Part shown: positions 38,072-59,197 of the stretch, piece after piece
How positions within the stretch are numbered: the stretch's first letter is position 1
Layout: each line of letters starts with the position of its first letter
The notes under the pieces: model-generated
What the model was told of the DNA's origin: nothing
The model's database searches: none
Seen by the model: the letters and a program-made list of their open reading frames with translations, nothing else
Program-made: the position numbers and the translations under genes
Origin: Bdellovibrionales bacterium
Lineage (GTDB): Bacteria; Bdellovibrionota; Bdellovibrionia; Bdellovibrionales; UBA1609
Direction of reading: 5' to 3'
Assembly (NCBI GenBank): GCA_965261545.1
Contig: CBDHDF010000011.1
Span: forward strand, 384,001-448,000
Length of the DNA: 64,000 nt

Positions 38072-38968
38072 TTATGGTGGAGCTTGGTTGCGGATGAGTT
38101 TCAGGTCCACTTGAAAGGATCTTATGACATTATTGGGGATTTCATGGGAGTCTGTGGCTTCCATGGCGTGAAAGTCCTTCTTGCCCCTGCCTTGGCAGGA
38201 GCCATATTCTAGAAACCCCGTTTTGATGTGTCCATTAAAAGTATGTATAGGTCTGATATACAGTTTATCGGTTTTTTCAACCATGCCCGCAGTGACTTTG
38301 AGGGATACGGTCACGGAGGAACCACCATGAAGCTTGATCTTATCAGAGCGGTAAGAACGACCTCCAAGGATGAAGTATAAGGGAATACTTTCTGGTTGCT
38401 CTTCAAACTCAATGGGTGACTCAACTTTTCCCGTATCATCCCGAAAGGAGGCTGTACACTCCCCACTCTGATAAACTTCAATGCAGTCTCGTATTTTGGA
38501 GTTCTTTCCTTCAAATGGGTGGGAGTTGTCGCATTCAAGCTCAGTCCATACGGAGGTCACATTTTTCTTATAAACCTCTGAAAATCTTCTTGTTATTTTG
38601 ACACCTTGAAGTCGAACAAGAATTTCATCTCCTGCCTTCACATGGCCCACAAAGACTTGTTTATCAACCATTTCCCCTTCAAAAATAATATAAGTTTCTG
38701 GCCCTTCTGAAAACTCGGCCCCCTTGTCATGGGAAGGGGGTTCTTGTGTGCCTTCACCTTCTCCAATTCCTTTGCCAGCCTCTTCTCCACCCCTTTTTCC
38801 GCTCTCTCCATTTGTTTCAGTTTCAACTTCAGAGTTTATATCTGGCTCTTCTGGAGAGGTTTCACTTATGGCCTTTGGTGGTGCCTTTGTTCTTTCAGGC
38901 TCCTCCCATTGACTACAGGAAAATAATATCATGGACATAAAAATAGTGGGTAAGATAAATGGATTCAT
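38072..38968 (-). CDS. Putative lipoprotein (paralog of 39100-40110)
   Basis: ILFSC lipobox; shares motif blocks with its neighbour. Confidence 0.75.
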   Translation of the reverse strand: MNPFILPTIFMSMILFSCSQWEEPERTKAPPKAISETSPEEPDINSEVETETNGESGKRGGEEAGKGIGEGEGTQEPPSHDKGAEFSEGPETYIIFEGEMVDKQVFVGHVKAGDEILVRLQGVKITRRFSEVYKKNVTSVWTELECDNSHPFEGKNSKIRDCIEVYQSGECTASFRDDTGKVESPIEFEEQPESIPLYFILGGRSYRSDKIKLHGGSSVTVSLKVTAGMVEKTDKLYIRPIHTFNGHIKTGFLEYGSCQGRGKKDFHAMEATDSHEIPNNVIRSFQVDLKLIRNQAPP

Positions 38969-39099
38969 ATTGAACTCCTTCTTTAAAATTTGAAATTATT
39001 TAGTTGTTAAGGTGACCAATGAGGCCAATCTGACTAAGAGGACCAGTGATTAAGGTTGAGCAATGCGACGAAGATGACTAAAAAAAGTGTCATAAAGCC

Positions 39100-40110
39100 T
39101 CACTCTGTCTCTTTCATAACTTCCTGACTAAGAATCTTTAGAGTCAACTCAAACTCTCTGGTTATTTTATGAGGTATGGTTGTTGATGAAGTGGTTTTCT
39201 CAAAACGAAAGTCTTTCGCATATTTGTTCGGACAATAAATGTAAGATTGAAAACCAACCTTAACTTCACCCTTGGATTCGTTGAGGGGCTTGAGGTATAG
39301 TTCGTTTATACCTCGAAGCATGTTTCTCGTTATTTTAAGGGAGGCAGAGAGATGTGAGTCATGATTAAGATCTACAAAATGCTGTATTTCCTCAAATTTA
39401 TAGTCCTGATCTCCAATTCTTAGAACTAAGTCGACACTATCTGTGTATTCATCCATATCAATAGATGTTTCACTTTCTCCAAGATAGTCTCGACGAGAGG
39501 TCATACACTGTTCCTCTTCATATATGTATCCACACCTTTCTGAACTGTTAAATTTTGAAGGTCCTTCACAGTAATAGTTTTTCTGGATTGTTTCTATGGC
39601 AACATCATAGAAATCTGAAAATTGAGTTTCTTTTTGGATGCCAGATATTATCTCTACCTTCACAAGGTCACCCTCTTTGACACGACCTACAAAGCGCTCT
39701 TGGTTGATCTTCTCATTTTGAAAGATGATATCAGAGGTCCTCTTAAAGCAAGGTGGAGGTGTCTCTTTCTCAGCTTCAAGAGATGAAGTTTGAGAAGGAT
39801 ATTGAGTGAATGTTTTGTCGGTGTTTTTCATAGAATCTTGGAAGAAATTTTCATCCTCTCGGCCTTCAATGTATTCTGCATTATATATACCTGGATCCTG
39901 GTCAAAGCCTTTCGTCCTTTCATTTTCTATTTCCATGGAAGGGTTGCAGGAGGTAGTTTCTAATTTTTTATTTGCCCCATTACATGCAAATAAAAACATT
40001 GGAAATATCATAGAAATTAAAAAGATTCTTGACCTTTCTGAACTGTTCTTAGAAATGATTAAATCATTATTTTTACACAAATATGGATATATATTTACGT
40101 TATTTATCAT
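39100..40110 (-). CDS. Putative lipoprotein (paralog of 38072-38968)
   Basis: LFAC lipobox; IIFQNEKINQERFVGRVKEGD vs IIFEGEMVDKQVFVGHVKAGD. Confidence 0.75.
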   Translation of the reverse strand: MINNVNIYPYLCKNNDLIISKNSSERSRIFLISMIFPMFLFACNGANKKLETTSCNPSMEIENERTKGFDQDPGIYNAEYIEGREDENFFQDSMKNTDKTFTQYPSQTSSLEAEKETPPPCFKRTSDIIFQNEKINQERFVGRVKEGDLVKVEIISGIQKETQFSDFYDVAIETIQKNYYCEGPSKFNSSERCGYIYEEEQCMTSRRDYLGESETSIDMDEYTDSVDLVLRIGDQDYKFEEIQHFVDLNHDSHLSASLKITRNMLRGINELYLKPLNESKGEVKVGFQSYIYCPNKYAKDFRFEKTTSSTTIPHKITREFELTLKILSQEVMKETE

Positions 40111-40454
40111 TTTAATTCTCCTAAAGGTTGTTCTCTTTAGCCCTTTAGGGTGTAAAGAGAGTGGACTCATAGGGCTCCCTATGAGATTACAAATTAATGG
40201 TGGCGTTATACCCCTTGGAAATGTGAAATAGTTAAGATATTAAATACTAAAATGATAGAAGTGATGAGGCAGTATCACCTCTTACCTTCGCTTTCTCCGC
40301 TCCATAAACGTCTCTTGCCTCTGTCTCTGGCCCTGTTTCTGATTTGCCCTACCTTCTGCTTATCTACTGTCTAAGCTTCAGCTTCATCTTCAGCCTCAAC
40401 CTCAGCTTCCTTATCGGCCTCTGTTCCTACCTTCACACCGGCCCCTGCTTCTAT

Positions 40455-41021
40455 CTACGTCTCAGTCTCCTTGCTTATGTCTACCTTTGTGTTTGTCTCC
40501 ACACTTTCATCTTCTATTTCTGTCTTTATTCCTATCTTTGTATCTTTCTTTGCTGTCTCTGTACCTCCCATTACTGTCTCTATGCCTAACTTTGTCTTTA
40601 TCTGTGGCCTCATTTGGACTCCTAAAATATCTGGAGTCTTTTCTGAAGCCTTCTTTTTGGGTTTTCGCCCTAGCTTCTTTTTGGAAATATTCACTTTGTC
40701 GAGATAAAGCTTGATGGACTCATCCATATTCTCATTGTTTGAGCTTTGAATGAGTTTTATCAGATAGGATTTCTTATCAAAAAATCCACGGGCGACATTT
40801 TCGTATTCTAAGGATTCATACTTCTGAAAAAATATCTTTAGAGAAGTATTGACGACTTTGGAGACACTCACCTTGCATGAATCTCTTTTCAGTTGAGTCA
40901 CCCATTCATTGACATATGACATAATCTCTTTGTCCAACAAGACTCTTTGAGATACATTTCTTTTCAATGAGTTCTTAGGTGGCAAATCTTTGTTTTTATT
41001 CTTGTGAACTAAGTTGTTCAT
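40455..41021 (-). CDS. Hypothetical protein of the conjugative operon
   Basis: Overlaps the upstream gene stop (ATGA); low-complexity tail. Confidence 0.65.
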   Translation of the reverse strand: MNNLVHKNKNKDLPPKNSLKRNVSQRVLLDKEIMSYVNEWVTQLKRDSCKVSVSKVVNTSLKIFFQKYESLEYENVARGFFDKKSYLIKLIQSSNNENMDESIKLYLDKVNISKKKLGRKPKKKASEKTPDILGVQMRPQIKTKLGIETVMGGTETAKKDTKIGIKTEIEDESVETNTKVDISKETET

Positions 41022-41683
41022 CGGCGATCTCCTTTCGATCTTTTGTTACGACTTCTTTGACGGGGTTTCTTCATTGACCCATGCGGTCCCTGTGGCCCCT
41101 GAAATGAACCTTCTGAAGGGGGAACCCAGGAGGAATCTCTGTCAATGATCCACACACAGTGCCCCTCGACGAGTTTCTTATTTCTGATCTCCCAGTCAAA
41201 ACATTCTTTGCTAATGCCAGGAGGAGCCACCAGGAAATCATGAACTCCATTCTCACTGGGTTCCTTTTCAGTGGAAAGTAAGGATGAAAATTTCTCTAAT
41301 TCAAAGAGAGTTTCTTTCCTCACTGCTTCATCTCTGCTCTTCAGCGAGTTGTGAATAATGTAAGAACTGGTGCCTCCAATTGTGGCTCCTATGAAAAGGC
41401 CATGCAGTATCCATTTTTTCCTATTCCTCTTCGTGGTGGCACCCACCATGGCTCCCGTCGCCGCTCCAAGACCTAATCCCATAAGAAGAGATGAGTTGGT
41501 GAGTTTGTTAGTGGAAGTTTCGGAATTTGTGGATGTGGAAGCGCAGCCTGAAATGAGCATTGTTCCAACAATCATTTTTATCAATATAATTCTTTTAATG
41601 GATTCCTCCTTGTTGTATTTGTTGTCAATTCTTCCAAATTTTTTCTCTTTTTTGTTCTTTTTGCTTCGTTTTTTTCTGTTCAT
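41018..41683 (-). CDS. Glycine-zipper lipoprotein
   Basis: LISGC lipobox; GLGLGAATGAMVG...GLFIGATIGG. Confidence 0.75.
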   Translation of the reverse strand: MNRKKRSKKNKKEKKFGRIDNKYNKEESIKRIILIKMIVGTMLISGCASTSTNSETSTNKLTNSSLLMGLGLGAATGAMVGATTKRNRKKWILHGLFIGATIGGTSSYIIHNSLKSRDEAVRKETLFELEKFSSLLSTEKEPSENGVHDFLVAPPGISKECFDWEIRNKKLVEGHCVWIIDRDSSWVPPSEGSFQGPQGPHGSMKKPRQRSRNKRSKGDRR

Positions 41684-42017
41684 TTATTATTATCTTCCTA
41701 TTATTTTCCTATTCTATTCTTATTTACTTCTTCCTACCTCTTCTACTCTCTTTCTTTTTCTTTTAACTCTTATTTTATTAATCTCCTCTATTGATTTCAT
41801 TTCTCACCAATGATTCGGTTTTTCTCTTGATTTCTGGCCCCCTCTCAGCCTTCAAAAAACACACTATTTTCCATTTTCATGAATCCCCCTTGACTAGATT
41901 TGAGGATTTTTTTGCAGTACCACATGATTTCAATAGGTTACAGATTTTTTCCCCTAGTTCGAAAAAGGGGCATACAAGGGGTCTATACAAAGGGTAGGCC
42001 CATTCAATATTTGGCTT

Positions 42018-42839
42018 TTACTTCAAGGCCCATCGGTTACTTTTGAAATCTGTAACCTCCACATGTTCAGGCGAGGAAAGGATATCATCAAATTGGCAGT
42101 AGAATACTCTGGAAACCTCACTGGTAAAAATTTCCTTTTCTATGCCTCGAATAGATTTTTCAATGGATTTATTCTTGCAAACATAAAGAATCGCTCGAAT
42201 GTCACTTAGTTGCAAATACTCAGATAATTTATCCCGAATCCTCCTTTTAGACTTCACGGTTGATTCATACTCCAGGGCTAATTTAAAGGTCTCATCTTTG
42301 ATCTTAACCTTAAAAGCACCATCAGAATGAATTTGGGTAAAAGACATATAGTCGCTAGAATTTGCCACTTCTTCACAGCATTGAAGAATATTTTCTTGTA
42401 TGAAATCTGTCACCAACTGTCTTCTACTTAGCCATTCCCCAACTTCTAAAAGTTCAATGTCGTGAATGGGATGGTTACTTTTCTTTTGCTTTTGGCATAA
42501 TGTATAGGGTAGCTCTTGTTTGACTTGATGGAGGGCCTTGTTTGTGATTGAGTAATAACAACGCCAATCATCATAATGGTCCATGAAGTATCTGAGTAAA
42601 TACTCTCCCCTGACCAGGCTGGATAAACGTAATCCACAGGCTTGGTAACTGGCACCTTGAAAGGGATATTTTGCCAGTTGCCTGAGGGTCCCCACCTTGT
42701 ATTTAAAGAGAAAGAGAAATAACTCTATATCTCTTTGGGTCAGTCTTATAGCACAGGGTTTTCTTTTTAAAGACCGACGAGTCTTGCTTGTTACTTCATT
42801 GACACCATCGCCATGACCACGATATGGTTTGCTGCTCAC
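42018..42839 (-). CDS. Replication-relaxation (MOBC-like) relaxase
   Basis: IRLTQRDIEL wHTH start, HD motif, SDG...ALEYES (D..ExE PD-(D/E)xK motif). Confidence 0.8.
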   Translation of the reverse strand: MSSKPYRGHGDGVNEVTSKTRRSLKRKPCAIRLTQRDIELFLFLFKYKVGTLRQLAKYPFQGASYQACGLRLSSLVRGEYLLRYFMDHYDDWRCYYSITNKALHQVKQELPYTLCQKQKKSNHPIHDIELLEVGEWLSRRQLVTDFIQENILQCCEEVANSSDYMSFTQIHSDGAFKVKIKDETFKLALEYESTVKSKRRIRDKLSEYLQLSDIRAILYVCKNKSIEKSIRGIEKEIFTSEVSRVFYCQFDDILSSPEHVEVTDFKSNRWALK

Positions 42840-44335
42840 AGAAGGCTCCCTTCTAAGGACTGCGAAAGGTTATCACTGACTTGATCTTTATCCTCATTCA
42901 CCTCCACCATGGGTTGAAAGTTAAGATTCTTTTGGCCCTCGTATTTTTCCTTAAGAAAAGATATTTTCTCTTTGAGGTCTTCATCGGAAATCAAAGGGGA
43001 CTGAATTTCTATAAATTGATTCCCCGTAGCCCAAATGCCACGGCCCTTAATATCAGGCAAACGAAAGGCCATGTTGTTGCCAATGGCACGCATGGAGTTT
43101 TCAAGGGTGTTGACACGAAAGCACAGACGTCCTCCGATGTTTTCTTGAACCTTGGGGTCCATGGTGTCTTTGTTGATTTTCTGGGTGGCAAAAATCAAAT
43201 GGATGCCAGCCGCACGGGCCAACTTGGCCAGTTCATCGGTCAATTCCCTGGCTTGAAGGATGAGGTCTTTCTTTGAGTTTTGGACAGAAACCTTGGTGTA
43301 AAGCTCACTGGCCTCATCAATACCTATAATAATCTTATCGAGTTTATCCCTTTGGGAGACAATGCTCTTATGCCCTTTCTCTTCTAAAATGGTAAAACGT
43401 CGTTTCATTTCATCCCTCACCTTTTTCAATATACTCACGGCTTCGGATTCACTTTTCACCACCCTGACATTAGGAAGGTCCCCAAACTCCTTCATTTCCA
43501 CCCCACCTTTGAGGTCTAAGAGGTACATTTGAATATAATCTGAGCTATGGAGAAGCCCCAAAAGGGCTTGTTTGAAAAAAACACTCTTCCCACCCCCCGT
43601 GGAACCTGCAATCAACATATGGGGCAAAGTGCTAATATCCACTGTGATAATGCCACCCAAAGATTCTCCAATGACAAGGGAGTAGGGCTTTTTTAAGTGT
43701 CCTATGAGGGGAGCCCACTCCACCTTTTGGGGAAGGATTTTTGTTGTCAGAAGTATTTCCACAAACTGGGGGGAACTTCCCAAGTGGATGGACTCAATGA
43801 TGGAGTTAAAGGATGAGGCAAGTTGATTTTGCTTCTGGGTGTATGTCTCAAGCCCCACTCCCTTGCTCAATAATGTAAGCTTTGTTTTGAAGTGATCCAA
43901 TCTTTCAATGGCTACCACCTTTGGGGCTGTACCATGACCTGATTTGATGTGGACTTCATCCAATTGTTTTTGGAGCTTCTTCTTTTGATAATAAGGACCT
44001 AGACCAAGAAGAATTAGAATAACAAAGCCTGAGAATATAGCCACCAGAACATAATGATGTAGCCAAGAAGGTGTTATCAAAAGAACACATAGTCCCTCAG
44101 TAAAGATATGGGGTGCTATTTTATGGGCCACAAAGATATAGTAGTGTTTGTAAGTAATACCAAAGACGAACCCCAAAAAGGAAGGGGCATAAACCTTAAA
44201 CTCAATGGATCTAAAGTCAATCCTTCTGACCCCATGGAAGGCAATATGGCACAATATCCATGACGCCTTTCCGAGTTCAATAATAACTCTCTCTATGCTC
44301 TCTGCTAATTTTTGATAATTATCGTTTTTACTCAT
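42836..44335 (-). CDS. FtsK/SpoIIIE-type ATPase (putative coupling protein)
   Basis: N-terminal TMs; PHMLIAGSTGGGKS, LLDLKGGVE, IDEASEL, LARAAGIHLIFATQ. Confidence 0.9.
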   Translation of the reverse strand: MSKNDNYQKLAESIERVIIELGKASWILCHIAFHGVRRIDFRSIEFKVYAPSFLGFVFGITYKHYYIFVAHKIAPHIFTEGLCVLLITPSWLHHYVLVAIFSGFVILILLGLGPYYQKKKLQKQLDEVHIKSGHGTAPKVVAIERLDHFKTKLTLLSKGVGLETYTQKQNQLASSFNSIIESIHLGSSPQFVEILLTTKILPQKVEWAPLIGHLKKPYSLVIGESLGGIITVDISTLPHMLIAGSTGGGKSVFFKQALLGLLHSSDYIQMYLLDLKGGVEMKEFGDLPNVRVVKSESEAVSILKKVRDEMKRRFTILEEKGHKSIVSQRDKLDKIIIGIDEASELYTKVSVQNSKKDLILQARELTDELAKLARAAGIHLIFATQKINKDTMDPKVQENIGGRLCFRVNTLENSMRAIGNNMAFRLPDIKGRGIWATGNQFIEIQSPLISDEDLKEKISFLKEKYEGQKNLNFQPMVEVNEDKDQVSDNLSQSLEGSLL

Positions 44336-45656
44336 GCAAAAAATCTCCTTTCATGGGAGCGGTAAGGCTCACCACAAGATTTGTTTCTATTGGAATAGTG
44401 ACATAAGGAACCAAGTGATTTAGTTCCGATGCCTGACGTTGAGACTCCATATCCGCCACCTTAGAGGCTCCGTGGTAAAAAGCATTTTTTAGGGTGGCTT
44501 TTGGAGTGATGGATACAGAACTAGGACTAGAGCCAGAACCAGAACCAAATTTAGATCTTCCAAGAGCCTCCTTTTGAGTCAAAGTTTCGGTCATGCCCGC
44601 AACCATGCTGAGTCCTAGAATGGAAGCCATTTTCCCACCTCGGCGACTGTGGTATTTTCCAGAAAGGCCCGGTCGATGACTCCTAGGAGCCAGTGCTTCG
44701 GCCTGCAAACCAAACTCATTTCCATTGGGAAGAACACCCTTTGAGAAATGAATAAAAACTTTTTTCCCTTTCCCTGGATAGCGAATGCTGCCTATAAGAA
44801 TCGTCTCTTTGGGAAGTTGCCCCCGATCTCGTTCCTTAAACCTTCCGCCCTTGGGAAGTCTCACCCTCACCCATGCACCCTCTTGTCGGGTATCAATGGC
44901 ACTGAGTAATTGGCCCTCAAAATAAGTGCCTGTGGGTAGTGCCAATGATTCGTGGTCTTCTTCCCGTACAATGACTTGTGGGGCTTTGTACTTAATGGGT
45001 GAAGCCTGGGAAAAAGCCACTCTCTGACTTCTTCCATTTCCTTGATTTTGGTCTCGTTGGTAACTTCGGCGTCTTTGGTTTCTATACCTTTGGTTTTGGT
45101 GTCTTTGACTGTCATGCCCCTCATGTTCTTCATGCCCTTTATATCTATATCTTTCATATTTTTGATTTTCATGACCTTGACTTTCATGCATTTTACCTCC
45201 ATGGTTCCCTTGGAACCCATGGCGTTTATGGGCTTCCTGGGTCTCATCGGAATGACTTGCACTTATGTCAGAAATTCCACCTAACAAAGGGGGCTGCTTT
45301 TTCCTTGTGTGGGAACCTGCTTGCCTTTCTTGGGATATCCCCCATGAGCCTTCGTGAGTTTCATCCCCTTGAGGGAGAAGCCCTAGGGATTGATTGTCTT
45401 GAAGTTGACTTCCTGGCAGTTGACTCCCTTGGAAAGGGCTTCCTCGGAGTTCTCTCCTAATAAAACTGCTGTCGTGAGAATCTAACATAGCTATAAAAAT
45501 AAGAACTATGGCGGATGAGGGAATTAAAACAAAAAAGAATCTATTGGACTTGATGACGTTCTTGCCAGCTTCCTTAATATAGAAAAAACCCATTGTTTTT
45601 CTTAAAAACTTCTTCAACTTCTTCAAATTTTTCAAAGAAAATGATTCATGACTCAT
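44328..45656 (-). CDS. VirB10/TrbI/TraM-like T4SS core protein
   Basis: TM anchor, disordered linker, LPTGTYFEGQLLSAID beta-domain; operon position. Confidence 0.72.
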   Translation of the reverse strand: MSHESFSLKNLKKLKKFLRKTMGFFYIKEAGKNVIKSNRFFFVLIPSSAIVLIFIAMLDSHDSSFIRRELRGSPFQGSQLPGSQLQDNQSLGLLPQGDETHEGSWGISQERQAGSHTRKKQPPLLGGISDISASHSDETQEAHKRHGFQGNHGGKMHESQGHENQKYERYRYKGHEEHEGHDSQRHQNQRYRNQRRRSYQRDQNQGNGRSQRVAFSQASPIKYKAPQVIVREEDHESLALPTGTYFEGQLLSAIDTRQEGAWVRVRLPKGGRFKERDRGQLPKETILIGSIRYPGKGKKVFIHFSKGVLPNGNEFGLQAEALAPRSHRPGLSGKYHSRRGGKMASILGLSMVAGMTETLTQKEALGRSKFGSGSGSSPSSVSITPKATLKNAFYHGASKVADMESQRQASELNHLVPYVTIPIETNLVVSLTAPMKGDFLHE

Positions 45657-46753
45657 AGGAACCTCTTTTTAATGATGATTCTTCTGGTTTCTTGCTGGTA
45701 TCCCAAGTGGAGGCTAAACCCTTTGTTCTCCATAATTTTAAATATAATGCGGCAGACTTGGGTTTGACCCACAGGAATTTCATGGTTTTCAAAAATGGAT
45801 TCAAATTGAGGTAAAGCCTTACCAGACCTTGTCATCCATAATCGAATGTCAGAGGTCTTAAGAGCCTTTTTTGATATATTCCAGAGTTCAATATCTATGA
45901 AATAAAGACCTTCATGGTTTAAGCTCTCAATATTGGAAATCATCCCAACTATCTTGCGCTTGATGCCTATTCTTAGCCCTCGGTCTGGAGTAGGGCGCTG
46001 GAGCAATGGAGCCGAACCATGGGAAGGAGGAATAGTCCGATGAGAATAGGAAGTAGGCTGATGGGCAGATGAAATAGATTGGCGAGGAGAGGAAATAGAT
46101 TGGTGAGAAGATGAACGCTTCTTTCTTTGATGGATTTTGTTGGTCTTGTTGGTGACTTTCCTCTGACCATTTTTTTGACTTCTTCGGCTCTTTCTATAAA
46201 CTGCATTGCTTCGGGAAGACCTCCATCGAACCTTTACTAAATCATCGTATTTACTCCCTGAGCTTAGCACCCTCAAGATAAACCCGTAGGTATGGTATTT
46301 GCCATAAACAAAGAGATTGGTGCTCATGGGTCCCTGGGGCTGTATCGTGACATCATTGCCAATAAATTCTATTTGAAAATAATTCTGATTCCCAATGACA
46401 ACTTTTTTGGGGCGTTCATGGAAGCGTAAAATCGTGGATTGCCCCATCTTCAAATAAATAGATTTCATTTTTTCATCATTCATCTCAAGAGTTCTGATAG
46501 AGCCAGCCCTTAGAGATGTTCCATAAAAGAGGATAGCAGCACACATTATGTTTATGCTAAAATTTATCACCCTTATTATTGTCCTAGCCGCTTTTACTGA
46601 TATCGTCATCCGTATCGCTCTTGTCATCCTTACTGCGTTTACCATTTCTGTCACTCTGGTCGCCCTAGTCGCCTTTATGGCCACCGCCGAGCTAGCCACC
46701 CTTGTCGCCTTTATCGCTTTTGCCGTTCTTACAACCAACAGTTTCTTGCTCAT
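45653..46753 (-). CDS. VirB9/TrbG-like T4SS secreted protein
   Basis: IYLKMGQSTILRF.E.P..VVIGN...TNLFVY pattern; operon position. Confidence 0.65.
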   Translation of the reverse strand: MSKKLLVVRTAKAIKATRVASSAVAIKATRATRVTEMVNAVRMTRAIRMTISVKAARTIIRVINFSINIMCAAILFYGTSLRAGSIRTLEMNDEKMKSIYLKMGQSTILRFHERPKKVVIGNQNYFQIEFIGNDVTIQPQGPMSTNLFVYGKYHTYGFILRVLSSGSKYDDLVKVRWRSSRSNAVYRKSRRSQKNGQRKVTNKTNKIHQRKKRSSSHQSISSPRQSISSAHQPTSYSHRTIPPSHGSAPLLQRPTPDRGLRIGIKRKIVGMISNIESLNHEGLYFIDIELWNISKKALKTSDIRLWMTRSGKALPQFESIFENHEIPVGQTQVCRIIFKIMENKGFSLHLGYQQETRRIIIKKRFL

Positions 46754-47376
46754 TTACTGACCTCATGGATAGTTTCATGAATGGTAATTCCGTCAACATA
46801 TAAGCCCATGGGATTCCACACTGTGGGGTTGTTCCGAATAATACGAAAAGACAAGCGGGTGGGGGCAATGAGGGGGATATTGTTCACTCTTACAATTCTG
46901 TCAAAAGAAGCTAAGGCTTGGCTTTGGGTCACAATGGGTTTTATATTAGCGACTGTTTGCTCAATTTTCTTGTTGAATTCTTTTTGGGTAAAGTCTTTTT
47001 TTATTTGGTGTCTCATCTTTTGAAGAAGCCCCTTTGTCGTGAGGGGAGAAATATTTTCAAGAGCTGAGATGGGGTTGGAATCACTCCATGTATAGCGAAG
47101 CCTGATATATTCTTCAAGGAAACGGGCAATGTCCTTTTCAGAAAGATGAATCTCTCTTTTCTCGGAGGAGTAAAACCTCTTCTCCTCTCCATTTTGAAGA
47201 ACCACCACCGGAGGGTTGGTGGACAAGTAGAATGAGAAAATTGTGAGTGAAAAACATAGGAGTCCCAATAAAACTCCCATGAGCTTGTAGAGGTAGAGCA
47301 CCTTGTTGAGGGCCACCCATTGGTTTGAGGGTTGAGTACGATTTTTTGTCACTGTTTTAATCATGGTCTTTGTCAT
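46750..47376 (-). CDS. VirB8/TraK-like protein
   Basis: Single TM, FLEEYIRLRYTW, C-terminal NPMGLYV motif. Confidence 0.7.
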   Translation of the reverse strand: MTKTMIKTVTKNRTQPSNQWVALNKVLYLYKLMGVLLGLLCFSLTIFSFYLSTNPPVVVLQNGEEKRFYSSEKREIHLSEKDIARFLEEYIRLRYTWSDSNPISALENISPLTTKGLLQKMRHQIKKDFTQKEFNKKIEQTVANIKPIVTQSQALASFDRIVRVNNIPLIAPTRLSFRIIRNNPTVWNPMGLYVDGITIHETIHEVSK

Positions 47377-48640
47377 GTTTTTCTCCTTCTTCCAAACTTG
47401 AATGGATATCCTTAGACGTTGATTTAAAATCTGATTTAGAATTTGACTCAGAGCTTGGCTTAGAGTCTGATCTAGAGTCTGGCTTAGGAGTTGATTTGGC
47501 AGTATTTTTAGGAGCCACTTTGGAAGTTTCCAGTGAAGTTTGATGCCTCCATATATTTCTTATGGGCGATAGCCATCGACTTTCTCCAAACTTGGCTGGT
47601 TTCCATGGTGAACCCGTGGACAATTCTTCGGATAACTCTTTGGTTGGCCTCAATGAGTCTTTGGAATCTCTTAATTCTGCGCCGATGCCCATATGTGAGC
47701 CGCCGAAACCTGTGACTGCGGTGAAAGTTCTAGCTGCTTTGGTCGATCGAATCGCCCTTGTCGGTCTAGTCAGTTGCCCCATTGAGCCCATGAGTGAGGA
47801 GGAGCCAGCAGGTGGTGGTGTCTCTGTGTTCGTAGATGATCCACCTAGAGTTCTTGCAAGAGCCCCTCGACCTTTTCGACTTAAGATTCCTTTCAGAGTT
47901 CCACTTAAAGCAATGGCTGGAGCCAGTGCTAAGGCGGATGCTGTTTTGGAGAGTCCGTCATTGATAAGAGACCTTGTGGTCAGAGGAGTAAACAACATGG
48001 ACAAACCAATGCAAAGGTTCATCATAATGGTGTATAAGAAGTTTTCCATATCTACCACTTGGGGATTAGTGGCTATTTTTAGAAGTATCACACCGAGGAT
48101 GGACCACATGATTTTCCATAAAACCACATTGATGAGCCCCTTGTAGAGATTCATTGCTATAAATGCAGTGTTTGCTGAAACATACATGAGTATCATTAAG
48201 GGAGAGCAGACATAAAGAACATGCCAAACAAATTGAACAAGGATATTGGCAATAAAAATACCTGCGTAAGCCACAACATAGGAGATCACACACAGGATGA
48301 ATACAATGCTTTCTCGTAGCTTGAGCCAACTCACTTCCATTTTCTGATAATTGGTTTCTAGGTGAACCAATAGATCCTTTAATTGGCCCATGGCATGTAT
48401 TTTCTGAGCAATTCCATCACCCAAGAAAGCAATTGTATTGAGACATTCTTCAAATGAAATAAGCATAATTATGGAGATCACAACCCTTTTTAGAATTTCA
48501 TGGACATTGGGGTTTTGTGATGGAATTTTAAAGAATTCTAAAATAATGGCTAAGAGGGTAAATGGAACCAAGAGAAGCCAGTAAAGCTCTCTTATATTCC
48601 CATGGATTTCTTGGCACACCTCGGATAAACCTTCAAACAC
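47357..48640 (-). CDS. VirB6/TrbL-like polytopic membrane protein
   Basis: Multiple TM helices, SPLMI motif, long low-complexity tail; operon position. Confidence 0.7.
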   Translation of the reverse strand: MFEGLSEVCQEIHGNIRELYWLLLVPFTLLAIILEFFKIPSQNPNVHEILKRVVISIIMLISFEECLNTIAFLGDGIAQKIHAMGQLKDLLVHLETNYQKMEVSWLKLRESIVFILCVISYVVAYAGIFIANILVQFVWHVLYVCSPLMILMYVSANTAFIAMNLYKGLINVVLWKIMWSILGVILLKIATNPQVVDMENFLYTIMMNLCIGLSMLFTPLTTRSLINDGLSKTASALALAPAIALSGTLKGILSRKGRGALARTLGGSSTNTETPPPAGSSSLMGSMGQLTRPTRAIRSTKAARTFTAVTGFGGSHMGIGAELRDSKDSLRPTKELSEELSTGSPWKPAKFGESRWLSPIRNIWRHQTSLETSKVAPKNTAKSTPKPDSRSDSKPSSESNSKSDFKSTSKDIHSSLEEGEKHDKDHD

Positions 48641-49368
48641 TATTTAAACCTCCGTAGTGAGAAATCAGGTTTGAGAGACTTCAAACCATTTTTCATATCT
48701 TTGTTAAATCTATTGAAAGCAACAACGCTATCTTTTCCGTACTTATTCGTCATGGCGAGATATTCACCTTGGAGTTTGAGTATCTGATTAAGAGTGTGTA
48801 AAATCTTGGCATTGCTTTCGGCCGTCATGCGCATGGCCCCCTTGGGTGAGGCCCCTCGGCTTTGCATGGAAATAATTTTTGAATTTTCCTCTTGCCTTTG
48901 GGCGTATGGCCCAATAAGCCCCACCATTTTAATGCTTTCGGCGACACTTTGGTCATGGAGCATCTGCATGGTGGATTCCATGCTGCGTGGAACTTCACCA
49001 TAGACCTTTACAATGGACTTATAGGCTCTATTAAAATCTTTCAGTCCACTTAAGATTTTGGCATCTTTGATGGGGAGTGAATGAAGCAGACCCACGGAAT
49101 TCTCTAGCCCCTCATTGATCAGTCTTAAATAGTTGTCCTTATTTTTCTCAGTTTCGAGAATCACTCTTAGTTGCTCATATCTTTTCATATTTTCTGAAAG
49201 AATGTTCGCCAAGTAGGGAACCTGTGCCCATCCAGCACCTGCATCGCCTAAGAAAGCATGGGAGCATGGAACTGCAAAGAGATGAATCCCTATGGAAAGA
49301 AGAATGGCTTTTCGGATAAAGTCTCTTGTTTGTCGGATAAAATGTCTTATTCTATTGAGTGGTTCTAT
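48640..49368 (-). pseudogene. VirB5/TrbJ-like secreted protein with a damaged 5' end (ORF-called part 48640-49212)
   Basis: An in-frame signal-peptide-like stretch (IRKAILLSIGIHLFAVPCSHA) lies upstream of 49212 with no in-frame ATG; the RBS is followed by an out-of-frame ATA. Confidence 0.55.
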
Positions 49369-52100
49369 GGGGCCTCCTTTTTGCCTTCAAAGGCAATTTT
49401 TTTAAGAATTTCTAACTTTGGTAGTTTTGGATATTTTCTTGCCATGGCTTCAATGGCAGCCTTATCAAAACCATCTGTGGTGCATATCCAGTAGCTCAAA
49501 GGGTCTGGGGTGAGCCGAATGACAGCCTTATTTTCATCTTGCATAAAAAAGAACTCACTGAAACTCCCCTTTTCAAGGGAAAGGCTTTTGATGACTTCCA
49601 CTTCGTCGTTGTTAAAGTCCATGACCTCTTGGAAATCCTTCCAGTCTATTTTCTTTTGGCGGAGAATAAAGACACTTGCTGTATTGGGAAAAATGGCATT
49701 TTTGATTTCTTGGCTAGAGAGAAAATCCTTGTAGTTTTGGCTAATACACCAAATGCCTCCATTGAACTTCCTAAAGGTGCGGTAGGCTTCCATGGCAAAG
49801 CTGAGGCCACTGGGTGTTTCAAAGAGTTTCCATGCCTCGTCGATAATGAGAAGGTAGGGAGTGGAGAGGTCACGGGCAGCTTCACTCTTTATAAAATCTG
49901 TAAAGAGGAGCAAGAAAACGTTTTGTAAATCGGGGTAGGCGTCAAGCCCCTTCGTCTCAATAGTGATAAGGTCTTTAGTGAGCTTCACATTGCTGGGACC
50001 ATCCAGCATTTGACCGTAGGCGGTGTTTCCCGTCCAAGAGTAAAGAGTTTGAGCAAAGTTTCTCATCTCTAAGACTTCATGTTCAGAGAGGACTTTTCTC
50101 AAATCTGATAAAATGGGCATTCGACCCTTGGTTTGTTCATTGTTGGCTTGCTTATGGATTTGCTCACTGGCCTGCCCATGATTTTCTTGTTCATTGTTGG
50201 TTCGCTTATTGGTTTGCTCATTGACCTGCTCACTGTTTGCTTGCTCATAGGTTTTAAAGATAGCCTCTTCGAGAAGGGCTTTTTCTCTCTTGGGAAGCCC
50301 TCTTTTTTCCTCATCCTTCAGGATGGACTCCAGCACAGCCAAGATCAGCTTCACCTTTGATGTTGTGGGCGTGGTTTGAGTCGTAGGGGTGGTCTGGTCT
50401 TCTGACGAAAGATCAAACATATTGAGCCTTATCTTTGAGTCTATGTTGAGGTTGATAAACTCACCCCCGTGGACTTCAAGCAGCCTTTGGGAAGAAGCCC
50501 CGTTGTCCACCCAAATGATTTTGGGTCTTGGAGTTTGGGTGCAAAATTGCAACATCATTTGAGAAATAGTAAAGCTCTTGCCCACGCCAGAGCCGCCAAA
50601 GATGAGGGCGTTCCAGTTGGTAAGCTCTTTGGCAAAGGGGTCCATGGAAAACAAAACTCCATATCTATTTGGAAACAAGCACACGGGTTTGCTGTGCCCC
50701 CTCCAATAGGAATAAAGGGGCATCAAGTGGGCGACATTGGAGCTTTTCATTTTTTTGGGTCTGAGCCCATGAGTGCTTCCGGGAAAAGTCATGGAAAAAG
50801 CTTCAAAACCTGGCAAGGTCTCCACCACCCCCTCAGATTGATTCATTCGCTTAAAGGCACTCAGTACCTCATCTGCTTTTTCTGTTAGCTCCTCTCTTCC
50901 CTTGCCCCAAATAATCACATTGAGATCTGTGGAGACGAGTTTTTCTGAACCCTCAAGCAGCTCTCTCATTAAATCCTCAATCTGATAGAGCTTGGACTCA
51001 GATTCTAGGTCACTGATATTTTGCGGACTTGAGGTCATGGAGTGGGCAAGCCTTCTTTGCACTTTTAACTTCTCAACCTCTGACTTTTGCCTGTGAATCT
51101 GGATATTTTGCAAAAGCCAAAAGTGGAAGGGTAGGCTTGTGAGATGATGGATCATGGCCGCATGGGTTTCTTCTTCGGGAAGGGTCTTCATTGTGATAAC
51201 TTGAAAGAAGTAGTTCCCACACTTTATACAATCCTCATAGATGCCTATATCCGTAAAGAGGATTTGGTGGGCAAGGCTTGGGGCAAAAAGGTCGTAAAAC
51301 TCTGACAAAGGCTCATGGAGGCCAAATTTTGACGAAGGGGGCTCAAGTTCCCCAAGTTCTAGTGAAGGCTCAAATTCCCCAATCCCTGACGAAGGCTCAA
51401 AGTCTTCAAGTTCCTCAATATCTGCTGGGGACTCAGTATCACCAAGATCAGAGAGACCAGAAAAGTCACCAAGGTCAGCAAGTCCGCCATGCTCCTTCCA
51501 ATGGGGAGGGCCAACCTTCTCACTGCGAGAGAGATTGAAGTATTCAAACAACAGGCCGGCCCACTGTGAACTCTCAAGTTCTACAGGGGCAAGTCCTCCA
51601 TCCTTGAGTAAAAAGAAAAGTTGCCTGCGGTTTCTTTCAAAGGTTTTCTTGTGTTCATCGTACTCTTGCTTGGAAGACTGCTGAAATTTCTCTTGAGATT
51701 TCCAAAATCCTTGGCGTTTATACTTAAGGGGCTCTCCCCGAAGAAACAAGTAAGTTTCTGGCAAGAAATACTCGCCTTGGTGCTTGTTCAAGAAATCAAT
51801 TCTTGCCTGCACTATCTCTTGTTGTGCTTTATTTGAGGTCACCGAGATTTTTTCATGCTCTTTGATGGTTTCAGAGACATGGGGAGTTAACCTGTAAAAG
51901 ACCTGGAGAGATAGACCTTCAGGAATGGAAGTCAGAAGGCTCCCCATCCTTCTATTAAAGTTGTTGACGCTCTCGGTGGAAGTGCAACTTATATCCATGC
52001 CATTGAGTTTAAATCCTGCCCCTAGGGAGCCATCGGAAAAAACCATGAGATTTTCATCAAAGTGCCAAATGGGTAGTTTATCTGCGAGAGCGTGAGTCAT
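49365..52100 (-). CDS. virB4: VirB4/TraC-family conjugative ATPase
   Basis: NALIFGGSGVGKSF, VDNGAS, LIIDEAW, RTFRKFNG...ISQ. Confidence 0.92.
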   Translation of the reverse strand: MTHALADKLPIWHFDENLMVFSDGSLGAGFKLNGMDISCTSTESVNNFNRRMGSLLTSIPEGLSLQVFYRLTPHVSETIKEHEKISVTSNKAQQEIVQARIDFLNKHQGEYFLPETYLFLRGEPLKYKRQGFWKSQEKFQQSSKQEYDEHKKTFERNRRQLFFLLKDGGLAPVELESSQWAGLLFEYFNLSRSEKVGPPHWKEHGGLADLGDFSGLSDLGDTESPADIEELEDFEPSSGIGEFEPSLELGELEPPSSKFGLHEPLSEFYDLFAPSLAHQILFTDIGIYEDCIKCGNYFFQVITMKTLPEEETHAAMIHHLTSLPFHFWLLQNIQIHRQKSEVEKLKVQRRLAHSMTSSPQNISDLESESKLYQIEDLMRELLEGSEKLVSTDLNVIIWGKGREELTEKADEVLSAFKRMNQSEGVVETLPGFEAFSMTFPGSTHGLRPKKMKSSNVAHLMPLYSYWRGHSKPVCLFPNRYGVLFSMDPFAKELTNWNALIFGGSGVGKSFTISQMMLQFCTQTPRPKIIWVDNGASSQRLLEVHGGEFINLNIDSKIRLNMFDLSSEDQTTPTTQTTPTTSKVKLILAVLESILKDEEKRGLPKREKALLEEAIFKTYEQANSEQVNEQTNKRTNNEQENHGQASEQIHKQANNEQTKGRMPILSDLRKVLSEHEVLEMRNFAQTLYSWTGNTAYGQMLDGPSNVKLTKDLITIETKGLDAYPDLQNVFLLLFTDFIKSEAARDLSTPYLLIIDEAWKLFETPSGLSFAMEAYRTFRKFNGGIWCISQNYKDFLSSQEIKNAIFPNTASVFILRQKKIDWKDFQEVMDFNNDEVEVIKSLSLEKGSFSEFFFMQDENKAVIRLTPDPLSYWICTTDGFDKAAIEAMARKYPKLPKLEILKKIAFEGKKEAP

Positions 52101-52408
52101 AGAATCCTCTTTTGTCTTTTGGGTTCAAATTTTCCTACATTGCCAGCACTATAAACCCCTGGAGTCATCTTGTAGGTTAGGAGGTGAAGGAAGTAGTTCT
52201 CAGGCTTATTTCTTTTGACGAAATACAAGACCACAGCCATCATCACGGGTAAAATGAAAACAAGGTAGGTGGCCAAGAAGGTGGAGCCAAAAAATAGATT
52301 CATGGTGGCTGCAAATAGGAGAATAAAAAGAAGATCGTGAGCCTCCATGCCCACAATCTTAAGTTTGGCATCTAGTCTTCGATGAATTCTTGAAGTCTCC
52401 AAAGCCAT
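52097..52408 (-). CDS. VirB3-like membrane protein
   Basis: Two TMs, KIVGME, immediately upstream of virB4. Confidence 0.65.
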   Translation of the reverse strand: MALETSRIHRRLDAKLKIVGMEAHDLLFILLFAATMNLFFGSTFLATYLVFILPVMMAVVLYFVKRNKPENYFLHLLTYKMTPGVYSAGNVGKFEPKRQKRIL

Positions 52409-52867
52409 TTAGTACCCCACCGCAGCTTGGAACCAGCTAATAATATGGGGAGCAAGAAAGCCCACAATACTGCATACAATCACCATGATGATTCTGCCCT
52501 TGGCGGCACCATCTCCTGTAAGGGCGAGAATCACCGCATACACAAGGCCCAAAACACTTATAAGGGGAAGTATCACGGTCATAAGCTGATTTGTGAGCCC
52601 CTTCATGCGGCTTTCAAAGCCACTTCCAAGAAGCTGAGACCACGCTGTTTCTGAGTAGTAAAGGGCCAACATCACCAAGAAAAAAATGGCGACCCACTTC
52701 AAAGAAGCCCTTAAGGTTGTGAATTGATTCATTTTGTCCACTTCGTTCGCCACGTTTGCCTTGTTCGTCTCGTTCACCTTGCTTACTTCGTTCGCCTCGT
52801 TTACTTTGCTCATCTCGCCCGCTTTGTTCATATTGCTCATCTCGTTTACCTTACTCATCTTGCTCAC
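52409..52867 (-). CDS. TrbC/VirB2-like pilin
   Basis: Signal-like segment plus two hydrophobic helices; upstream of virB3/virB4; repetitive N-terminus. Confidence 0.7.
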   Translation of the reverse strand: MSKMSKVNEMSNMNKAGEMSKVNEANEVSKVNETNKANVANEVDKMNQFTTLRASLKWVAIFFLVMLALYYSETAWSQLLGSGFESRMKGLTNQLMTVILPLISVLGLVYAVILALTGDGAAKGRIIMVIVCSIVGFLAPHIISWFQAAVGY

Positions 52868-53264
52868 CTTCTGGGCTTCCCATAATAAGAGACCTACTAT
52901 AAGGACCGATATTCATAATCACATCCCCCTGGGTAAGAGCATTTGAGTGGCCTTCACCCACTGACTTGCGTGTCTTAAATTTTCCATTCTTTTTGATGAC
53001 CACCTCCACTCGATAGCGAGTTCGATCTCCCGTGGATAAAATGGGCTTGAGGTAGTATTGATTCTCTGGGTGTATATCAATTTTCAGTCGATATTCCCCA
53101 AAGTTATGCTCATGAAAAGCAACTCCTGCTGGGAAATGACGCTTTTCTTCTTTATCAAACCACCACAATTGAAATACTTTGGATTTCTTATCTCCTTGAT
53201 ATTCTTTAATTTTCTTATTTTTTTGATCTTCATGAGATGATTGAAAGTTCTTTGTTTTTTTCAT
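52851..53264 (-). CDS. Hypothetical protein (leading gene of the transfer operon)
   Basis: GGAGG RBS; small beta-rich basic protein. Confidence 0.65.
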   Translation of the reverse strand: MKKTKNFQSSHEDQKNKKIKEYQGDKKSKVFQLWWFDKEEKRHFPAGVAFHEHNFGEYRLKIDIHPENQYYLKPILSTGDRTRYRVEVVIKKNGKFKTRKSVGEGHSNALTQGDVIMNIGPYSRSLIMGSPEGEQDE

Positions 53265-53366: not shown

Positions 53367-53642
53367 CTAATTGTTCAGTTCATCCAGCATAGATTCCTTC
53401 ATTAGCTCTAAAGACTCATTAATAAGGTGATCTGTTTGAGACCAATCCAGATGAAGCACCATAGATATTTCTAAAATAGAAAAGTGATACCAAAATCGAA
53501 GTATAATAGAAATTTTATGTTTCTCTGGTAACCTTGCCACATGTTTCCTTACCCACTTTCTTCCATATTCAATAAGTTTCTTTTCATAAATGAATTGCTT
53601 CAAAAATAAATCCTCGCTTTTATAGGTTTGTAAGTCTTCCAT
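53367..53642 (-). CDS. Sigma-70 region 4-like HTH protein
   Basis: VARLPEKHKISIILRFW..FSILEISMVL. Confidence 0.65.
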   Translation of the reverse strand: MEDLQTYKSEDLFLKQFIYEKKLIEYGRKWVRKHVARLPEKHKISIILRFWYHFSILEISMVLHLDWSQTDHLINESLELMKESMLDELNN

Positions 53643-54664: not shown

Positions 54665-56038
54665 TTGAGTGAAATATTGAAAGATCCATTAAAAAGCAAA
54701 GTCGTCAGTGTGCATGTTATAGAGGACAGCAAATTAGACTCTGAACTCATTCAAGATCTCATCAAAGTAGAACTAAGAAAGTGTGGATTGACCCCCAAGG
54801 TTTCAGCCACATTCAAAGAAAAAAGCTCTTATAGTGCTTTAAATCAAAATAACTATGATATTGTGGTTTTTGATATTGATCTAGATCGAAGAATGGCAGG
54901 GATTGACCTTCTTGGTATGTTTACTAAAAAGGTACAGTTTCCGATCATCTCCTCTTGCCGTGAGTCAGATGATATCGTAAAAAAAGCTTACAGTCTAGGT
55001 TGTGAGCACTTTTTAAACAAGCCTATCAAGCAGTCAAAGATTGCCCATCTGGTCGATCAATATACAAAGCAAATAAACTCCAAGAGCATCTTGCGAGTTA
55101 TAAAATCAAGATACATGACCCAAGATGAAGAGACCCTCAGTGAGCTTAATAAAGTCACTTCATCGAAAAATGCTCATTTATTTGGACCCACAGGGGTAGG
55201 CAAACAAATCGTCGCTGAACTTATTCATCATATACATTATGGCAACTCAAACCCCTTTGTTGAAAAGAACTGTTCATCTATCACAGAGTCTCTTGCGGAG
55301 TCCTTCCTTTTCGGCCATGAAAAGGGAGCCTTCACAGGTGCCAACAACCAAAGAAAGGGTATCTTTGAGCTTGCCAAGGGAGGCACCGTCTTCTTAGATG
55401 AAATCGATAAGACATCAAAGTCTTTTCAAGCCAAGTTATTAAAAGTTATAGAGAAAAAGGAAATTCAAAGGGTTGGATCTGAAAAATCAACACCTGTTGA
55501 CTTCTCGCTGGTCACAGCAAGTAGTACAGACCTTAATTTCCTTGTGGAAAACGATAAATTCTTACCTGATCTTTGGGAAAGGCTTCAGGTGGAGGTCATT
55601 CACTTGAAACCTCTGAAAGAACGTCCCTTGGATATAGAGCTACAAATGCAGAATTTCATTAGGCTTCATGAGTCAGGAAGACTGTTTGTCATCTCTGAAG
55701 AAGCCCATAAGTTTTTGATGAGTTACCACTGGCCAGGAAATACAAGGGAATTAAAAAACGTTGTGGACAGCTTACAAAGGAAGAATATCAAGATTCTTGA
55801 ACTCAAAGACCTTAAATTCTTACAAAAAAAATCCATCAGACAGCAATATGGCCTCGTCAATCAACAAATACTTCAGGCCATGGAACAAAATGGACTCAAA
55901 AATGTCGTCAATCAAATATGCCGGGAAGCAGTTCATCATTTTTTCACTCAAAATGATGGGAAAAGAAGAATCACAATGAGGCAGCTTGAAATTAGCTCAG
56001 ATACTTTATACAGACACTTAAAAGAAAATATGGGGTAA
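54665..56038 (+). CDS. sigma54-dependent response regulator (REC-AAA+-HTH, NtrC family)
   Basis: IED, VVFDIDL phospho-Asp, LNKP; GPTGVGK, FGHEKGAFTGA, FLDEID, WPGNTREL; C-terminal HTH. Confidence 0.95.
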   Translation: MSEILKDPLKSKVVSVHVIEDSKLDSELIQDLIKVELRKCGLTPKVSATFKEKSSYSALNQNNYDIVVFDIDLDRRMAGIDLLGMFTKKVQFPIISSCRESDDIVKKAYSLGCEHFLNKPIKQSKIAHLVDQYTKQINSKSILRVIKSRYMTQDEETLSELNKVTSSKNAHLFGPTGVGKQIVAELIHHIHYGNSNPFVEKNCSSITESLAESFLFGHEKGAFTGANNQRKGIFELAKGGTVFLDEIDKTSKSFQAKLLKVIEKKEIQRVGSEKSTPVDFSLVTASSTDLNFLVENDKFLPDLWERLQVEVIHLKPLKERPLDIELQMQNFIRLHESGRLFVISEEAHKFLMSYHWPGNTRELKNVVDSLQRKNIKILELKDLKFLQKKSIRQQYGLVNQQILQAMEQNGLKNVVNQICREAVHHFFTQNDGKRRITMRQLEISSDTLYRHLKENMG

Positions 56039-56041
56039 AAA

Positions 56042-56260
56042 ATGAATTTAACAAAAGAAGAAATAAAGCACGATTTGAAAAGAAATATAAGTTCTATTTT
56101 ATCTGGAACAACAATGATAATGAATAAGATTCCTAAGATAGATATTTATATTCGAGAAACAATAGAAGAAATAGAAAAGCAATGTGAACAAACATTTAAA
56201 CTGTTAGACATTTTCACGGAAAGTAAAGATGAAAATAAGAAAAAGCCAAAGGAGGTATAA
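56042..56260 (+). CDS. Small stand-alone HisKA/DHp-like protein
   Basis: IKHDLKRNISSILS resembles an H-box followed by a second amphipathic helix. Confidence 0.55.
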   Translation: MNLTKEEIKHDLKRNISSILSGTTMIMNKIPKIDIYIRETIEEIEKQCEQTFKLLDIFTESKDENKKKPKEV

Positions 56261-56261
56261 A

Positions 56262-56582
56262 ATGAGAAAAATATGGACCATACTTGTTGCTATGCTCGGA
56301 ATGTCGAGTAATGCATCTTCCGCATACTCTGGTTGCTATGATGAAGCCATGGAAGTTTCAACAGAAAGCAACCTTGAAGTGAGTCTAGAACAAAGTGCAG
56401 AAGAAGATTTTGATGAACTTGATAGAATCATGGATTTATACCCACATGCTAGTATTGATGAAAAAGTTGGAATGAGCTTTAAAGCACATAGAATAGCGGA
56501 TCGTCTTGAGCGTCAAGGTTTTGATGTTGCTGATTCTATGTCTCAATCATCAAGAACATGTGACTATTGTGTGAAACCATAA
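56262..56582 (+). CDS. Secreted peptide, candidate RiPP/pheromone precursor
   Basis: GGAGG RBS; signal-peptide-like N-terminus (MRKIWTILVAMLGMSSNASSA), acidic middle, C-terminal SMSQSSRTCDYCVKP. Confidence 0.65.
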   Translation: MRKIWTILVAMLGMSSNASSAYSGCYDEAMEVSTESNLEVSLEQSAEEDFDELDRIMDLYPHASIDEKVGMSFKAHRIADRLERQGFDVADSMSQSSRTCDYCVKP

Positions 56583-56627
56583 CATTCAATCATTATTGAT
56601 GGCATAAGAAAGGATATAAATTCAAGA

Positions 56628-59191: not shown

Positions 59192-59197
59192 ATTGAT

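Follow-up and report, generated by a model that had tools for sequence, protein, structure and literature searches.

A 64,000-nucleotide stretch of a Bdellovibrionales genome (assembly GCA_965261545.1, contig CBDHDF010000011.1, here C11, positions 384,001 to 448,000; the window in what follows) carries a gene module that is probably a conjugation system in which an FtsK-type ATPase takes the place of VirD4. Positions 42018-52867 are fully tiled by ten minus-strand open reading frames (ORFs), abutting or overlapping: first a type IV secretion system (T4SS) set, virB2-3-4-5-6-8-9-10, then an ATPase of the FtsK branch, then a Replic_Relax (MOBC-like) nuclease. This gene set is genuine and not a product of chance, because its order is kept across many genomes at about 30-50% identity. 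The host genome (4.3 Mb, 96.8% complete and rich in insertion sequences, IS) carries the module six times, with four of the copies on C11 and a single one on each of contigs C2 and C10. The C2 sibling copy is near-identical to the window across 35815-60876, and the module genes are under purifying selection (nonsynonymous to synonymous rate ratio, dN/dS, 0.08-0.29 between these two copies for the eight module genes compared). Another near-identical pair lies at C11:254-264 kb and C10:116-126 kb, with virB4 split in both.

An initial annotation, made from the letters alone, had read the first eight genes as a minimal diderm-type T4SS. Family searches, relatives and a structure model bear this out, weakly so for VirB5. 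The VirB2-like pilin (52409-52867) matches PF04956 (E 1e-4) and, as a family profile, TrbC of R751 (92%); it has hydrophobic segments and, in the window copy, an N-terminal repeat extension. Weak TIGR03750 and TraL matches, two transmembrane (TM) segments and position point to a VirB3-like protein (52097-52408). The VirB4 ATPase (49365-52100) matches PF19044 (E 1e-30) and TIGR02746 (262 bits, below cut-off) and belongs to a clade of its own. The VirB6-like polytopic membrane protein (47357-48640) has five hydrophobic segments, and 13 of 34 relatives match TrbL/VirB6. The VirB8-like protein (46750-47376) has no Pfam match itself; relatives match VirB8 (4/36) or TraE (2/36), and its structure model (pLDDT 90), a kind of check that the initial annotation had proposed, matches VirB8 folds (TraH of pIP501, CagV and TraE). 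The VirB9-like protein (45653-46753) matches CagX (E 3e-5) and TIGR02781 (E 8e-7), both below cut-offs, and VirB10, the outer-membrane core subunit (44328-45656), matches TrbI (PF03743, E 1e-10) above its cut-off. The locus therefore holds what defines a diderm-type T4SS: a VirB4 ATPase, a VirB9/VirB10 core and an inner platform of VirB6 and VirB8. Single-sequence profile comparisons of VirB5, VirB6, VirB8, VirB9 and VirB10 with R388 and R751 proteins were mostly insignificant.

The VirB5-like secreted protein (48640-49368) is named from its position, its signal peptide and an Atlas feature match to a TrbJ cluster (0.90); no relevant Pfam match was found among 34 relatives, and its profile matched neither TrwJ nor partial TrbJ. 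Its listed ORF begins at 49212, but the frame is open to an ATA codon that overlaps the virB4 TAG stop (49368-49366) behind AAGGAGG, in both sibling copies, and this start adds the signal peptide. The gene thus appears to start at ATA behind a strong Shine-Dalgarno sequence. As a separate observation, the T4SS genes of the window (44328-52867) carry in-frame low-complexity or tandem-repeat inserts (e.g. 50133-50248, with a period of 54, 52743-52870, 46067-46115 and 47420-47495), with lengths unlike those of the C2 sibling. Family median lengths are shorter than the window copy (103 aa for VirB2, 806 for VirB4, 241 for VirB9 and 311 for VirB10), and in one subgroup (L161-L176) VirB9 spans only about 125-150 aa, i.e. 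it has no C-terminal domain.

The gene after virB10 (42836-44335) encodes an FtsK/SpoIIIE-branch ATPase (PF01580, E 4e-23) with an N-terminal membrane anchor (TM 95-113), a predicted coupling protein. That such an ATPase replaces VirD4, as first proposed, holds up: no VirD4 reference exceeds 13 bits against the family profile, and the ATPase matches neither of the VirD4 coupling-protein domains PF02534 and PF10412. On the same profile, scores are 161-201 bits for TcpA-like proteins, 146-167 for Bacillus prophage FtsK and 111-151 for chromosomal FtsK. The closest PDB entry is TcpA of pCW3 (6O1Z, E 1e-31; FtsK only E 3e-16), and among plasmid proteins C. perfringens TcpA comes closest, with an identity of about 30%. 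The likeness to TcpA and Tn916 Orf21 drawn at the outset stands as to the FtsK branch and the closeness by score to pCW3 TcpA, but not as to descent from within the TcpA clade or as to Orf21, which is far away (61 bits). In the motor-domain tree, the backbone of which lacks resolution, the Bdellovibrionota ATPases form two clades (SH-aLRT 98 and 92) outside TcpA (100) and chromosomal FtsK (97), and the family is not nested in TcpA. The TcpA-family architecture is present (FtsK-branch ATPase, N-terminal TM segment and a relaxase as neighbour), and from this architecture and context we infer that the ATPase works like TcpA. Across C11:384-483 kb, no VirD4-, VirB11- or transglycosylase-like ORF was found (6, 3 and 4 reference queries, respectively). 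PF02534 has no match anywhere in the host genome, and weak PF10412 matches there are confined to three other T4SS loci of different type.

The module ends with the Replic_Relax (MOBC-like) nuclease (42018-42839), a winged helix plus a PD-(D/E)xK domain with the residues D173-E190-x-E192-x3-K196 and Y208. PF13814 (Replic_Relax) is matched by 29 of 47 relatives, and the window protein itself has no Replic_Relax match in the Pfam search. In its model (pLDDT 92), residues ~30-111 form a winged helix, and an alpha/beta domain shows weak fold matches to FokI and BspD6I (best restriction-endonuclease fold match E 0.004). Compared with the PDB by sequence, the profile finds winged-helix regulators only, and in a wide fold search with the model the list was filled by winged-helix matches. 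Invariant residues of the family alignment include H126, E149, D173 and E190, with K196 and Y208 nearly invariant. The D-E-E motif together with the N-terminal winged helix fits the features reported for MOBC, so the earlier assignment to a PD-(D/E)xK, MOBC-like relaxase is upheld by the family match in relatives, the modelled fold and the motif.

Directly after the nuclease gene lies a candidate origin of transfer (oriT; 41925-42000, minus strand): short direct and inverted repeats, CCCTTTGTAT and CCCCTTGTAT, followed by a TAACCTATTGAAAT box at 41940-41927. Repeats were counted in the first 75 bases past the nuclease stop codon, in 85 de-duplicated regions of 99, and in 56 control regions. 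A direct-plus-inverted 6-mer occurs in 19 of the 85 regions against 0.24 in shuffles (maximum 2) and none of the controls; a 7-base inverted repeat in 36/85 (3.7 in shuffles, 7/56 controls); and a 7-base direct repeat in 26/85 (4.1 in shuffles, 2/56 controls). The repeat sequence varies between elements, and a shared TAAnnnnTTGAAAT box comes after it, mostly 55-78 bases from the stop. This box holds 9.2 bits of information, a modest excess over shuffled (6.3-6.6) and control (7.6) regions, and we take it to resemble an IHF site on the opposite strand. The nucleases of the window and the C2 copy have diverged (83.5% identity) and the repeats of the two differ (CCCTTTGTAT/CCCCTTGTAT versus CCCCTTAC), while the box is identical. 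An inverted repeat past a stop codon could alternatively be a terminator; the direct repeats and the box point to something beyond that, and repeats plus TAAnnnnTTGAAAT box would together serve as the oriT.

Loci of this family were gathered by an alignment-based profile scan (a single-sequence locus scan gave nothing). At E <=1e-40 the FtsK profile finds members in 82 of 301 genomes of the phylum and in 68 of 170 genera, kin not being independent; named relatives are Halobacteriovoraceae, Bacteriovoracaceae, Bdellovibrionales and Oligoflexales, all Bdellovibrionota, and the FtsK gene is also present in a named isolate, Halobacteriovorax sp. HLS. The notion that FtsK-like coupling proteins are mainly Gram-positive agrees with the available parts of three reviews, which place TcpA only in Firmicutes MPF_FA (PMC3548315, PMC4027160, PMC12857230; MPF, mating-pair formation), but not with this spread in a diderm phylum. 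We compiled 112 loci (79 main, 16 weaker matches, 4 extensions, 12 own-genome regions and the window), some of them short or near-duplicate, with flanks of only ~10 kb. The full order B4-B5-B6-B8-B9-B10-FtsK-relaxase occurs in 59 of them, with B2 and B3 also present in 51 of the 59. The relaxase directly follows FtsK in 97 of 102 loci, and the remaining five end at a contig edge. Within these flanks, VirB11 and a transglycosylase are found in none of the 59 full-order loci, in line with the absence of VirB11 and VirB1 noted in the window. Nor did a canonical VirD4 turn up elsewhere on the element, the finding that would have undone the initial proposal: a VirD4-like gene occurs in two of the 59 loci, both times as part of a neighbouring second module. 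A match in Nomurabacteria was rejected as a stray contig (the only one in 101 genomes of its phylum, where all other matches were to chromosomal FtsK), and metagenome-assembled genomes labelled Polynucleobacter or Deltaproteobacteria do not show spread to Pseudomonadota, as they fall in one GTDB phylum sample.

The surroundings are those of mobile DNA. A recombinase is present in 54 of the 59 full-order loci, and a tRNA or tmRNA in 26 of the 53 loci scanned. In a search for attachment (att) sites of eight elements, two have exact duplications of a tRNA 3' end (21 and 17 bp) that bound elements of 44.7 and 43.0 kb, and neither element contains a match to VirD4, VirB11 or a soluble lytic transglycosylase. 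In the C2 sibling, a tyrosine integrase lies beside a tRNA-Leu core in a seemingly tandem arrangement; its 70.7-kb core spacing was rejected as a clean attL/attR pair, and 2.6-3.5 kb of duplicated integrase end was read as a tandem junction. A Mom-family gene (35709-36719, minus strand; PF25680) precedes the integrase in sibling elements, and a 636-aa serine recombinase, common to the window copy and its sibling, lies 7 kb past the right end of the window. The module family consists of integrating mobile elements, probably of the integrative and conjugative element (ICE) kind, common in Bdellovibrio-type bacteria and apparently undescribed.

Evidence on the role of the ATPase comes from another, F-like T4SS of the phylum (TraE, TraK, TraV, TraH, TraU and a PilB-type ATPase), the VirB4 proteins of which form one clade (100/100). 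Within this clade, one module has a VirD4-like protein with an HUH relaxase (PF03432; L013/L180, the host's own C10 element), and the other has FtsK with Replic_Relax (L039, L062/L177, L076/L178), with no VirD4 in the two such loci whose upstream DNA was checked. This natural swap supports a coupling role for the FtsK ATPase. Apparent VirD4 matches upstream of the F-like FtsK loci were rejected, being to the TraU-like tail of a fused protein in L013. That protein (L013:11461-14703, on host C10) is VirD4-like with a TraU-like C-terminal domain and belongs to an F-like T4SS with a PilB-type ATPase, of which the genome has three such loci. In a third, small module a homologous Replic_Relax is paired with a VirD4-like protein (L164/L179); at L179:13411-19001, beside a standard copy, lies this kind of smaller set, with B2, a short B4, B5, B6, a short B9, B10, a lipoprotein, Replic_Relax and a VirD4-like protein.

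We hold with good confidence that the locus is a conjugation module with an FtsK-type ATPase as its coupling protein and a MOBC-like cutter, and we infer its mechanism and transfer from sequence. The element's recombinase would first excise the element. The winged helix of the nuclease would then bind the element-specific repeats, and its PD-(D/E)xK site would cut nearby. A membrane-anchored FtsK-type hexamer, replacing VirD4, would pump the DNA into a channel of VirB6, VirB8, VirB10 and VirB9, which VirB4 would build together with VirB2, VirB3 and VirB5; the system would do without VirB11 and a dedicated transglycosylase. By analogy with TcpA/MOBT and MOBC/VirD4 systems, it is somewhat more probable that a single strand would be transferred.

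Several observations weigh against this interpretation. Bacillus prophages carry FtsK plus Replic_Relax pairs without a T4SS, and the available part of PMC9658697 interprets that pair as plasmid-replication helpers. Seven Bdellovibrionota loci have FtsK and relaxase (most with mom and integrases) and no T4SS genes in the fetched flank; these look like mobilisable elements. No covalent adduct between a MOBC protein and DNA has been detected, as far as the available text of PMC12857230 and PMC6736028 goes, which leaves piloting of the substrate unexplained. The window's own repeat set fails the strict triple test, and the VirB5 and VirB7 assignments are weak. For six of the eight elements, the att search turned up no convincing duplication within the DNA fetched (two short off-end matches counted as chance, four none). 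Finally, the window copy has an IS directly after mom, where its sibling has the tyrosine integrase; its element ends were not found, and this copy may have lost excision.

Among alternatives, the best founded concerns the class of the T4SS. The VirB4 phylogeny was computed on 37 rows (quick mixture model) and on 30 rows, with seven close relatives dropped (LG+G4); references number 1-5 per class, some branches are long, MPF_C and R64 TraU are missing, and MPF_I is represented by two plasmid ATPases, one typed MPF_I by MOB-suite. In both trees the family is a clade (support 100) outside the T, F, G, B, FA and FATA references and sister to Thermus plasmid VirB4 (96; 96/98); among 72,556 plasmids, the nearest VirB4 is likewise from Thermus. 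All NCBIfam VirB4 models score below cut-off on the window protein, F-type TraC being the highest. Hallmarks of known classes are absent: no Pfam match to TraU, TraW, TraN, TraF, TraH or TrbC in the window and a VirB4 outside the F clade (MPF_F); a VirB4 outside the TcpF/Orf16 clade, no monoderm architecture and a relaxase other than MOBT or MOBM (MPF_FA); and, for MPF_T, neither VirB11 nor VirB1. On the other hand, the module could be a divergent MPF_T conjugation system that lost VirB1 and VirB11 and swapped its coupling module, and so no separate class. Gene order is VirB-type as in R388, the pilin matches TrbC, and forcing VirB4 with MPF_T, at 24 log units worse, is not rejected (approximately unbiased test, p-AU 0.104). 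We consider this doubtful, given the Thermus placement in the best trees, the F-type best model and the separate occurrence of true MPF_T-like VirB4 in a related phylum sample. The initial suggestion of a poorly described MPF type therefore stands insofar as VirB4 falls outside all sampled classes, but not to the exclusion of MPF_T; by sequence, a separate, poorly described class or clade is likely, not proven.

A bolder version of the conjugation module, which we regard as unlikely, is an undescribed MPF class in which the cutter would open the element without a covalent pilot and the FtsK motor would send DNA in double-stranded form through a minimal T4SS spanning two membranes, perhaps out of a predator into prey or from one predator to another in a shared prey cell. 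It is improbable that FtsK and Replic_Relax are instead a replication or segregation cassette for the excised circle, with the T4SS borrowing a coupling protein in trans or having no DNA substrate. The T4SS-less pairs of Bacillus prophages and Bdellovibrionota, and three VirD4-like genes elsewhere in the host genome, speak for such a cassette; yet within one VirB4 clade the pair substitutes for VirD4 plus HUH relaxase, the FtsK gene overlaps virB10 in one operon, and the relaxase profile matches the VirD4-paired Replic_Relax (98.9%) and not that of Bacillus (E 0.48). Co-option of the T4SS for predation (protein delivery to prey, or prey DNA uptake with FtsK as importer) is suggested by hosts that, from their names, we take to be largely predators and by the ability of FtsK-type motors to move double-stranded DNA, but is highly improbable in view of the patchy presence, the multiple divergent copies per genome and the recombinase, tRNA linkage, cis repeat site and nuclease of a mobile element.

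Beyond the conjugation module, conserved minus-strand genes flank it on both sides. Upstream, a protein directly before virB2 (52851-53264) is conserved by alignment in 35 of the 59 full-order loci, and the operon is headed by a sigma-70 region-4-like protein (53367-53642; weak ECF sigma matches, 29/59 loci), likely a regulator. Downstream, a Gly-zipper lipoprotein (41018-41683; 55/59 loci) has a C-terminus that is weakly TraV-like (2/20 relatives scanned, E 0.003 and 0.023) and is a candidate VirB7 or exclusion lipoprotein. The small protein after it (40455-41021; 51/59 loci, no family match) may bind DNA as a relaxosome component or as a regulator. Two related lipoprotein-like genes of no assigned family (38072-40170) trail the module in some relatives.

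The rest of the window is mixed. Positions 1-35700 are a dense IS pile-up (IS21, ISL3, IS3 and IS4-like), several having dozens of near-identical genome copies. Within it lie a TIR-domain gene, type I restriction-modification genes (a nucleotidyltransferase fused to HsdS), RhuM and a truncated HsdR (11483-17763), and a 456-aa ORF, multi-copy in the genome, without a Pfam match (22619-23989). Cargo common to the C2 sibling (54665-60946) comprises a sigma-54 response regulator, a solute-binding protein, a YcaO-domain protein and a histidine kinase; similar cassettes sit upstream of two other module copies. From 60931 to the window's end and on through C11:447278-452313 run a MotA/MotB-like pair and two larger ORFs, presumably resembling a Zorya-type defence system, where the C2 sibling has a different set.

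According to the available part of a review from 2025, every Gram-negative T4SS relies on a coupling protein of the VirD4 family, and the TcpA family is confined to some MPF_FA systems (PMC12857230); if our interpretation is true, this rule is broken in roughly one in four of the sampled genomes of a diderm phylum. The module would also join the two components with the most debated mechanism, an FtsK-like pump, which may move double-stranded DNA, and a MOBC cutter that leaves no detected adduct. With a ten-gene system and a mapped candidate oriT, single- versus double-strand transfer becomes testable. Moreover, the module may give predatory bacteria a native transfer route that escapes standard tra/mob screens. 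We found no description of a VirB-FtsK-Replic_Relax system in a literature search that covered subscription journals thinly, and supplementary CONJscan tables could hold such loci.

Compared with known systems, the coupling end of the module is closest to the Tcp system of pCW3 (C. perfringens, MPF_FA). Both have an FtsK-branch ATPase with an N-terminal anchor adjoining the relaxase, and TcpA proteins are the best PDB and plasmid matches and the top scorers outside the family. However, the host here is diderm, with a VirB9/VirB10 core; the relaxase is Replic_Relax and not the MOBM TcpM; VirB4 is far from TcpF/Orf16; and the ATPase lies outside the TcpA clade. By reported features, the nuclease resembles MOBC systems (pAD1 TraX, CloDF13 MobC) in its winged helix, restriction-endonuclease domain, D-E-E motif and candidate-oriT repeats, whereas those systems are reported with VirD4-type coupling proteins. 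In streptococcal integrative and mobilisable elements, MOBC is found with VirD4 and never TcpA, according to the available part of PMC5357655. The MPF_T/VirB systems of R388 and R751 share the order B2-B3-B4-B5-B6-B8-B9-B10 and a TrbC-like pilin, but the module has no VirB1, VirB11, VirD4 or in-operon VirB7, and in the best trees its VirB4 does not fall within the MPF_T clade; according to the available text of PMC4027160, it is usual for systems other than MPF_T to lack VirB11. The Thermus plasmid T4SS (e.g. T. aquaticus p61) has the nearest VirB4, sister in the trees, but also a VirD4-type coupling gene, a transglycosylase and other downstream genes. The Bacillus prophage pair shows the same two Pfam families, in the same order and as overlapping genes; unlike the module, it comes without a T4SS, its ATPases form a separate long-branch clade and its relaxases are not alignable by profile. 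Altogether, the module is of a known kind, probably an ICE with a T4SS, in a new combination and possibly a new MPF clade.

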